From a virus (Duplodnaviria; Heunggongvirae; Uroviricota; Caudoviricetes), in the IMG/VR virus record IMGVR_UViG_2718218201_000002, positions 1 through 64,000 of that record: 64,000 nucleotides of DNA; one strand, 5' to 3'. How positions within the stretch are numbered: the stretch's first letter is position 1; every line of letters begins with the position of its first letter. The notes beneath the pieces were generated by a model. That model was given only the letters and a program-made list of their open reading frames with translations, made no database searches and had not been told where the DNA came from. Shown here one piece after another: positions 28,649-29,399 of the stretch. A program made the translations under genes and the position numbers.

Positions 28649-29041
28649 TTATAAGTCTATCCAATTCTTTTTTATCCACCTAGCTATTTCCTCTTCCTCT
28701 AATCTTTCTGTCACTACACCAACAGTAAACTCAGTAGCTTCATTGTTATCCACATTTATCCATTTACCATTATCATCAAGAAAGATTTGTAAAGCAGCAA
28801 AAGCTGTTCTTTTATTAGCGTTTTGAAATACATGTTTCATAACTAAATTTCTAAACAAGTTAGCTGCTTTCAATTCTAATGTTGGGTAAAGCACTTCTCC
28901 AAAGATTTCTTGTTTAGGACTCTCTACCGTCATGTTCAATGCTGTTGGTTGAGCCACACCAATTGGCTCATCAGGAGAGTATGTTTCAATAATATGGGTG
29001 TTTAGTAAAATTAAATCCTTCTCTGTTAAATACTTGGTCAT
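28649..29041 (-). CDS. doc: Doc (death-on-curing) / Fic-family toxin
   Basis: HVFQNANKRTAFAA matches the Doc motif H-x-F-x-N-(A/G)-N-K-R-T-A (P1 Doc is HIFNDANKRTAL). 130 aa. Confidence 0.65.
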   Translation of the reverse strand: MTKYLTEKDLILLNTHIIETYSPDEPIGVAQPTALNMTVESPKQEIFGEVLYPTLELKAANLFRNLVMKHVFQNANKRTAFAALQIFLDDNGKWINVDNNEATEFTVGVVTERLEEEEIARWIKKNWIDL

Positions 29042-29286
29042 CGTTGAACCAAATCTTTCATAGTTTTATTGTATTGAGCAAATACTTTATTTGCTTTAGC
29101 AATAACTTCTTTTTCTCTATCAACATGTTTTTCTAACTCAATGTTGCCATTTTCATTAATTTTGATACTTACATCTTCGCCAACTTTGATTCCAACTCTC
29201 TCTAACAAAGAGTTAGGTATGCTTAAAGTTGCACTATTACCTACTTTTCTCACTTTTCTTTTTAAATCTTTTTCAACCATAGCCAT
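29038..29286 (-). CDS. AbrB/MazE/SpoVT-type antitoxin (Phd functional analogue)
   Basis: VRKVGNSATLSIP is a swapped-hairpin beta-barrel DNA-binding motif. It overlaps doc by 4 nt. Confidence 0.6.
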   Translation of the reverse strand: MAMVEKDLKRKVRKVGNSATLSIPNSLLERVGIKVGEDVSIKINENGNIELEKHVDREKEVIAKANKVFAQYNKTMKDLVQR

Positions 29287-29323
29287 GAGAACAACCTTCT
29301 TTCTTATATTTCCTGTTGTAATA

Positions 29324-29353
29324 ATTATATATACGTATACACGTATATGTCAA
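29324..29353 (-). promoter_or_regulatory. promoter of the TA operon (TTGACA-18-TATAAT) with a palindromic operator in the spacer
   Basis: Inverted repeat ATATACGT-ATAC-ACGTATAT (29329..29348) sits between the -35 and the -10. Confidence 0.5.
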
Positions 29354-29399
29354 GTGGAAGGTTACAATACTCTCAGGTTATTCTCTTCAACAATATGAA

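Follow-up and report, generated by a model that had tools for sequence, protein, structure and literature searches.

The question raised by this locus is what a toxin-antitoxin (TA) pair does in the early region of a prophage, and how the pair is kept under control. The DNA analysed, referred to here as the window, is a stretch of 64,000 nucleotides (positions 1 to 64,000 of IMG/VR record IMGVR_UViG_2718218201_000002). An earlier note, made from the letters of the window, had described a Doc-type toxin with an overlapping upstream antitoxin gene and a palindrome in the spacer of the promoter. The pair is very probably a canonical, autoregulated type II AbrB(MazE)-Doc operon that an SPbeta-like prophage of Staphylococcus pseudintermedius carries as a self-contained accessory unit (a "moron"). 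The features of the operon are as follows, in window coordinates.

28649..29041, minus strand: Doc toxin gene, 130 aa (open reading frame list and family profiles)
28802..28834, minus strand: codons of the catalytic motif HVFQNANKRTA, toxin residues 70-80 (read from the translation)
29038..29286, minus strand: antitoxin gene, 82 aa, with an AbrB/MazE-type N-terminal domain (KRKVRKVGNS) and a presumed toxin-binding C-terminal helix (open reading frame list and profiles)
29295..29299, minus strand: Shine-Dalgarno sequence GAAGG, 8 nt before the antitoxin ATG (read from the sequence)
29324..29329, minus strand: -10 hexamer TATAAT (promoter scan)
29348..29353, minus strand: -35 hexamer TTGACA of the TA operon promoter (promoter scan; identical in 8/8 sibling prophage loci)
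29329..29348, unstranded: putative operator, reading ATATACGT-GTAT-ACGTATAT on the minus strand (inverted-repeat and half-site search; a candidate binding site)
28593..28633, minus strand: terminator-like hairpin predicted by RNA folding, with a 14-pair stem, a UUUUU loop and a U-rich tail

The toxin was compared with family models by profile search and scored well above the curated cutoffs of NCBIfam TIGR01550 (DOC_P1; 79.4 bits, cutoff 38.65) and Pfam Fic PF02661 (46.8 bits, cutoff 24); it also matched PHROG 577 ("Doc-like toxin") at 104.7 bits. The motif by which the earlier note had recognised a Doc-type toxin was found intact at residues 70-80, where H70-V-F-Q-N-A-N-K-R78 agrees with the Doc motif HxFx(D/N)(A/G)NKR as it is defined in PMC13034048. 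Residues F72, N76, K77, R78, T79 and A80 were invariant among the 16 homologues compared. The protein is small and consists of a single domain, and its gene lies directly downstream of the antitoxin gene, which is the arrangement of the class. The best PDB match was EFDoc, the toxin of the Enterococcus faecalis pair EFPhd-EFDoc (9VZC_A, E = 4e-24), with 42% identity across 122 aa, and the entries for P1 Doc (3K33 and 3DD7) were matched at E = 4e-5 to 4e-4. A representative with 99% identity carries the NCBI name death-on-curing family toxin. By homology to P1 Doc and EFDoc, the protein would be a Fic-fold kinase that phosphorylates EF-Tu, and the 130-aa product would be expected to inhibit growth.

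The antitoxin scored 38.7 bits against Pfam MazE_antitoxin PF04014 (cutoff 24.7), and no Phd/YefM domain was found among its Pfam and NCBIfam matches at E <= 0.1, in keeping with the earlier description of an AbrB/MazE-type rather than a Phd-type partner. The segment VRKVGNSATLSIP corresponds to residues 12-24. Against NCBIfam TIGR02609 (doc_partner), the alignment ran end to end (residues 10-81 on model positions 1-74 of 74) with 39.5 bits, below the curated cutoff of 55.9, so the protein was treated as a divergent relative and not as a curated equivalog member; the antitoxins sampled from relatives matched the same model at E <= 0.001 in 15 of 15 cases. A PDB search with the single sequence returned the E. 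faecalis antitoxin chain as the best match (9VZC_B, E = 0.0056), along with 9VYB and 9VX7, and a profile of the antitoxin family matched structures of MazE, PemI and AbrB at E = 1e-5 to 1e-3. Family-profile matches to 9VZC_B, 9VYB and 9VX7 are circular because EFPhd is part of the query alignment, and only the single-sequence match and the MazE/AbrB profile matches were counted. Judged by these sequence profiles alone, the antitoxin is a predicted AbrB/MazE-type beta-hairpin dimer. In EFPhd, DNA is contacted by K8, R10 and N14, and a triple alanine substitution of these residues abolished binding (PMC13034048); the prophage antitoxin has K11, R13 and N17 at the aligned positions. The C-terminal pattern (Y/H)-x3-K-x-LV-x-R is common to antitoxins in the family alignment, and the prophage protein lacks the LPxG(V/I)DxxF segment found in Bacillus and Paenibacillus members.

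Antitoxin and toxin reading frames overlap by 4 nt (ATGA), with the toxin start codon lying over the antitoxin stop codon, and the gene overlap described in the earlier note was thereby confirmed; translational coupling of the two genes is supported. The proposed promoter TTGACA-18-TATAAT was likewise recovered on the minus strand (29353..29324), with an 18-nt spacer and a match to the consensus at 12 of 12 positions. The hairpin downstream of the toxin gene starts 16 nt past the doc stop codon and is part of the minimum-free-energy fold of 28472-28660; a simple terminator scan made no call at this hairpin. Given its own promoter and the hairpin behind doc, the TA pair looks like a self-contained transcription unit.

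The palindrome that the earlier note had placed in the promoter spacer was located at 29329-29348, as an inverted repeat with perfect 8-nt arms and a 4-nt gap that takes up the whole promoter spacer and extends 1 nt into either hexamer. This placement fits autoregulation. The repeat includes two shorter palindromes, GTATAC (6 bp) and TATACGTATA (10 bp), and four GTATA/TATAC half-sites fall within 18 nt (29330-29347). This is the sole such cluster in the 64-kb window, for which 0.045 clusters were expected. Since the four half-sites form a unique cluster, the operator is better described as a cluster of GTATA/TATAC units than as one 8-N4-8 repeat.

Such a repeat could also be a by-product of an AT-rich, low-complexity promoter, in which case the antitoxin would bind elsewhere or regulate weakly. 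Inverted repeats with perfect arms of >= 8 nt and a gap of <= 8 nt had 20 centres in the window against 17.3 +/- 5.0 in dinucleotide shuffles, and the local p-value for a repeat within 150 nt upstream of the antitoxin gene was only 0.04; both results would suit a by-product, although the local p-value also counts to some extent against chance. Because there is no enrichment across the window, the argument for the palindrome rests on its position, on the half-site cluster and on comparison within the family. Across the eight sibling prophage loci the promoter and the palindrome are conserved, with one arm altered by a G-to-A change in a single sibling (L003). The altered arm would suit a by-product, but the change creates another perfect palindrome, TATACATGTATA. 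Among homologous operons, 23 of 63 de-duplicated upstream regions held a palindrome at p <= 0.05, with about 3 expected (binomial 1.6e-14), so that an upstream palindrome is a trait of the family, although the homologue in an S. epidermidis SPbeta-like phage has no comparable palindrome upstream, as a by-product would allow.

Palindrome motifs are specific to lineages, with GTTATAAC upstream in Bacillaceae and Paenibacillus and GTATATAC or GTATAC in S. simulans, Enterococcus and Alkalibacterium. The S. simulans promoter, TTGACA-18-TATACT with GTATATAC units in the spacer, has the same architecture as the promoter in the window, and the GTATA/TATAC half-site is also present in the promoters of S. 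simulans and Enterococcus eurekensis. The half-site is shared, moreover, with a verified operator. The E. faecalis antitoxin binds the palindrome TGTATATACA, as determined by EMSA, size-exclusion chromatography and a DNA co-crystal (PMC13034048); this palindrome was located in the E. faecalis operon (L091) directly after a -10-like TATACT, and GTATA/TATAC is common to it and to the putative operator described here. With the cluster occurring once in 64 kb, a half-site verified in a relative, the same layout in S. simulans and enrichment across the family, the by-product explanation is unlikely, and the antitoxin would be expected to bind at 29329-29348.

The preferred reading of an autoregulated operon can accordingly be set out as a series of predicted steps. 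A sigma-A consensus promoter would drive a bicistronic, translationally coupled transcript. Free Doc, as a Fic-fold kinase, would phosphorylate EF-Tu and thereby arrest translation, while the C-terminal helix of the antitoxin would neutralise Doc. The N-terminal AbrB-type beta-hairpin dimer of the antitoxin would bind the GTATA/TATAC cluster that lies between, and overlaps, the -35 and -10 boxes, and occupancy of this operator would shut off the promoter of the antitoxin's own operon. The role of such a circuit would most likely be selfish addiction, through which the prophage or its accessory island is stabilised.

The host was assigned by comparison with named sequences. The window was 100% identical to CP016072.1 across the 6 kb compared, and both the neighbouring 450-aa protein on CP016072.1 and the Doc representatives with 98-99% identity carry the name S. 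pseudintermedius. On these grounds the host is S. pseudintermedius and not S. aureus. No match was returned by megablast of 27000-31000 against the phage collection, where relatives were found at the protein level only, and nothing was found by an Rfam scan of the whole window. The window comprises the early region of an SPbeta-like prophage, in which an ATP-dependent ligase, RecJ and a DnaB-type helicase are also encoded. Two of the early genes serve to place the TA pair:

18159-22088: DNA polymerase III alpha (DnaE)
35823-38135: PNK-phosphatase-RNA ligase fusion

The statement that the pair is embedded in the replication module held in part. The pair does lie between DnaE and the ligase on one side and the PNK-RNA ligase, RecJ and DnaB genes on the other, but the neighbourhood directly around it is a slot for variable accessory genes. 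Between yolD and the TA promoter, sibling prophages have one of two kinds of cargo, a PLA2-like gene or an SdpI/SdpA/SdpC-like cluster. The slot in the window has suffered a deletion, whose junction (29388|29389) lies upstream of the -35 box at a distance of 35 nt; yolD loses its 5' end to the same deletion and retains 89 of 137 aa.

Decay of this kind raises the possibility that the TA pair is itself a non-functional, decaying remnant, since yolD is truncated at its 5' end in the window and both yolD and the cas12f-like gene described below are disrupted in some siblings. The TA genes, by contrast, were intact in all 8 of the 8 sibling loci examined, both open reading frames are full length, every motif residue is in place, and a Doc protein with exactly this sequence is listed for 77 blocks of the assembly collection, as well as being present in many public S. 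pseudintermedius assemblies. A remnant is therefore a very improbable explanation.

Position in the early region bears on a further possibility, namely that Doc is no addiction toxin but helps the phage in its lytic cycle, either in taking over the host or in countering its defences. The TA genes are co-oriented with the early genes, and PHROGs places the Doc-like toxin in its category moron / host takeover. Against this, a dedicated sigma-A promoter with an operator and a terminator-like hairpin is the layout of an autorepressed unit expressed in the lysogen, and the pair is also found on chromosomes and plasmids that have no phage context. A lytic effector is accordingly given very little weight, and the lysogen-expressed, autoregulated TA operon is retained as the explanation for the layout.

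The region directly downstream of the TA pair was found to contain a separate locus with the following features.

27119-28471, minus strand: gene for a 450-aa "TnpB", with its own promoter at 28541..28513 (11 of 12 consensus positions)
26796-26889: CRISPR array with the 36-nt repeat GTTTTAGTTCTATACGAATTAACATAGTGGTGATAC, a 30-nt spacer and a degenerate terminal repeat, about 230 nt past the stop codon of the cas12f-like gene

The 450-aa protein is named TnpB or transposase at NCBI. It matched the PADLOC Cas12f model over its full length with 401 bits, and the PDB entries 8J3R, 8J1J, 8J12, 8DZJ and 7WJU, which we take to be AsCas12f, at E = 1e-75 to 1e-78 over about 430 residues; the molecule names of these entries are "Transposase IS605 OrfB C-terminal domain-containing protein" or "OrfB_Zn_ribbon domain-containing protein". 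To judge from these matches, the protein is a full-length homologue of AsCas12f accompanied by a CRISPR array. Arrays in sibling prophages hold one to three spacers, and the spacers that differ between strains lie at the cas-proximal end. Homologues with 66% identity in other SPbeta-like prophages are accompanied by two-repeat arrays, and a 52%-identical homologue in Macrococcus armenti by an array of six repeats. No cas1 or cas2 gene was seen near the cas12f-like gene, and a search of the phage and plasmid collections with the four CRISPR spacers gave no match at E <= 1. A single conserved cassette formed by mazE-doc and the cas12f-like gene was considered and rejected: the two are unlinked in Macrococcus armenti, and different genes lie upstream of the cas12f-like gene in other SPbeta-like prophages.

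Selfish addiction, or stabilisation, is the default and most likely role of the TA pair. The same module might nevertheless have been selected for abortive infection or superinfection exclusion, where a rival phage would deplete the labile antitoxin, free Doc and so halt translation. Such a role would suit the variable slot, in which siblings carry competition or defence cargo (the PLA2-like gene or the SdpC-like cluster), and the Cas12f-type CRISPR locus directly downstream. The Doc domain also partially matches the PADLOC candidate defence family PDC-S23 (E = 1e-11), but the PDC-S23 matches cover just the Fic domain of longer proteins (312-331 aa) with another architecture, the antitoxin has no match to any defence family, and close homologues also occur as plain chromosomal pairs, as in Macrococcus armenti. 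An abortive-infection role, argued from the neighbourhood and from these partial Fic-domain matches, is thus possible, and we regard it as unlikely to be what the module was selected for. Beyond these points, nothing was found in favour of the exclusion and anti-defence roles suggested in the earlier note. A more specific proposal treats the Doc pair as more than selfish, namely as a lysogen-expressed abortive-infection or stabilising element for the prophage's variable island of defence and competition genes, of which the Cas12f-type CRISPR locus is a part, so that either loss of the island or a rival phage would free Doc. This proposal is speculative and is held to be less probable still.

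Taken alone, the TA pair matters little, as the toxin is already present and annotated in public assemblies and the AbrB-Doc class has long been known. What is gained is a corrected host, a sharper operator model through half-sites common to the verified E. faecalis operator, and the finding that the pair occupies a cargo slot whose content varies among SPbeta-like staphylococcal prophages. The adjoining Cas12f-type CRISPR locus, which is not annotated as such, is the more interesting object of the two.

Within the phage group, the closest comparison is with the Staphylococcus phage SPbeta-like NC_029119, in which gp117 ("addiction module antitoxin") and gp116 ("Doc-like toxin") form an annotated TA pair that lies in a comparable part of the early region, not far from yolD and dnaE. 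The toxin of that phage is 46.5% identical, there is no comparable palindrome upstream of the pair, and no cas12f-like gene follows it.

Phd-Doc of phage P1 is likewise phage-borne and its toxin has the same Fic-fold kinase motif. The P1 operon is autoregulated and is the paradigm of a module that maintains a prophage. Its antitoxin, P1 Phd, adopts the Phd/YefM fold and occupies two neighbouring palindromes cooperatively, whereas the antitoxin described here is of the AbrB/MazE type; P1 is also a plasmid prophage, and the prophage in the window is integrated.

The earlier note had presented the combination of a Doc toxin with an AbrB-type antitoxin as a notable hybrid, a view that could not be maintained, since AbrB-Doc is the most frequent Doc pairing and has an NCBIfam model of its own, TIGR02609. 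In the survey of Makarova 2009, no other neighbour was found as often beside Fic/Doc toxins as AbrB (55 cases, Xre having 22), and the AbrB-Fic combination was more than threefold over-represented (PMC2701414). A search for related loci, built on 7 closer sequences, returned 80 genomic loci with relatives of this particular Doc in Bacillota, and in 78 of them a gene for an ERKxxKxGNS-type antitoxin lies immediately upstream. The "composite mazE-doc" system tasA-tasB was described by Fico and Mahillon 2006 (PMC1626090). TasA-TasB, from the Bacillus thuringiensis plasmid pGI1, has a MazE/AbrB-type gene directly upstream of a Doc gene, and pairings of this class are widespread in Bacillota. It differs in being plasmid-borne, while the prophage antitoxin is divergent, shorter and under the TIGR02609 cutoff.

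EFPhd-EFDoc of E. faecalis, for which crystal structures are available (PDB 9VZC, 9VYB and 9VX7; Park et al., NAR 2026, PMC13034048), is alike in the HxFxNANKR motif of its 42% identical toxin, in an AbrB-like beta-hairpin antitoxin with K/R/N contacts, in adjacent genes ordered antitoxin then toxin, and in a palindromic GTATA/TATAC operator at the promoter. The kinase activity of EFDoc was quantified by ADP-Glo with E. faecalis EF-Tu as the substrate (PMC13034048). That pair is described as chromosomal, and this one is prophage-borne. The two antitoxins also differ in their C-terminal halves: BLAST aligned the N-terminal 32 residues only, leaving C-terminal halves that can barely be aligned, and the dimer-interface residues H54/K56/K57 are R/K/E in the prophage protein, for which reasons the E. 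faecalis mode of neutralisation, reported to work through toxin dimers that the antitoxin stabilises, cannot safely be carried over to it. The E. faecalis operator is a single 10-bp palindrome after the -10 box, whereas four half-sites lie in the -35/-10 spacer here, and the intact E. faecalis toxin-antitoxin complex did not bind DNA (PMC13034048), so the regulatory logic of the prophage operon may differ. Overall, the module is an ordinary member of the well-known AbrB-Doc class, with a close relative that has been structurally solved.

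The open reading frame directly downstream of the toxin-antitoxin pair is annotated publicly as TnpB or as a transposase. PDB chains that we take to be AsCas12f (8J12, 8J3R and 7WJU) matched it over its full length at E about 1e-76, and it scored 401 bits against a PADLOC Cas12f model. The features of this locus, together with the remnant of yolD on the other side of the pair, are as follows.

26796-26889, CRISPR array (repeat-spacer-repeat), downstream of the cas12f-like ORF
27119-28471, minus strand, cas12f-like ORF, within the locus 26796-28541
28541..28513, minus strand, promoter of the cas12f-like ORF
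29400-29669, plus strand, yolD remnant, 5' part lost

The array consists of a 36-nt repeat and a single 30-nt spacer. In sibling prophages of Staphylococcus pseudintermedius it holds one to three spacers, which are not identical ones, and those that vary among siblings are located at the cas-proximal end. Arrays also accompany the cas12f-like homologues of Macrococcus armenti and of other SPbeta-like prophages. No cas1 or cas2 was seen near the cas12f-like locus, and no spacer targets were found in phage or plasmid collections. The cas12f-like gene is disrupted in some siblings, where it was called as 141 aa.

The beta-hairpin segment of the antitoxin (29038-29286, minus strand) gave a marginal match of 21.5 bits, exactly at the cutoff, to DUF2080, a family described as "transposon-encoded / transposase-associated". 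This match probably reflects the common AbrB-like hairpin rather than a tie to the neighboring TnpB/Cas12f-like gene.

In siblings, the cargo between yolD and the toxin-antitoxin promoter takes one of two forms: a 1.6-kb stretch that includes a PLA2-like gene, or a 3.5-kb stretch with an SdpI/SdpA/SdpC-like toxin cluster. The window is without this cargo and without yolD codons 1-48, and comparison with the siblings places the deletion junction at 29388|29389. This position is a site of variable cargo.

Two further regions of the window were recorded.

35823-38135, minus strand, 770-aa protein in which a polynucleotide-kinase-like AAA_33 domain, a metallophosphatase and a T4-type RNA ligase are fused
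53130-55456, minus strand, MrpR-type recombinase (337 aa) side by side with a DndB-like protein (437 aa; a weak assignment, under the Pfam cutoff)

In domain content, the fusion has the set found in an RNA-repair enzyme, and it could possibly counter host anticodon nucleases. It is kept in other SPbeta-like prophages (loci L095-L098).

In alignment A1, Tyr replaces the first His of the catalytic motif in two natural Doc homologues, P0006 of Macrococcoides canis (KYIFHNGNKRT) and P0015 of Salinicoccus roseus (KYIFFNGNKRT). P1 Doc chain 3DD7 likewise has Tyr at this position (YIFNDANKRT); this is H66Y, the substitution that served to detoxify P1 Doc for crystallography. Because their Tyr matches this detoxifying substitution, these chromosomal Doc copies may be attenuated.
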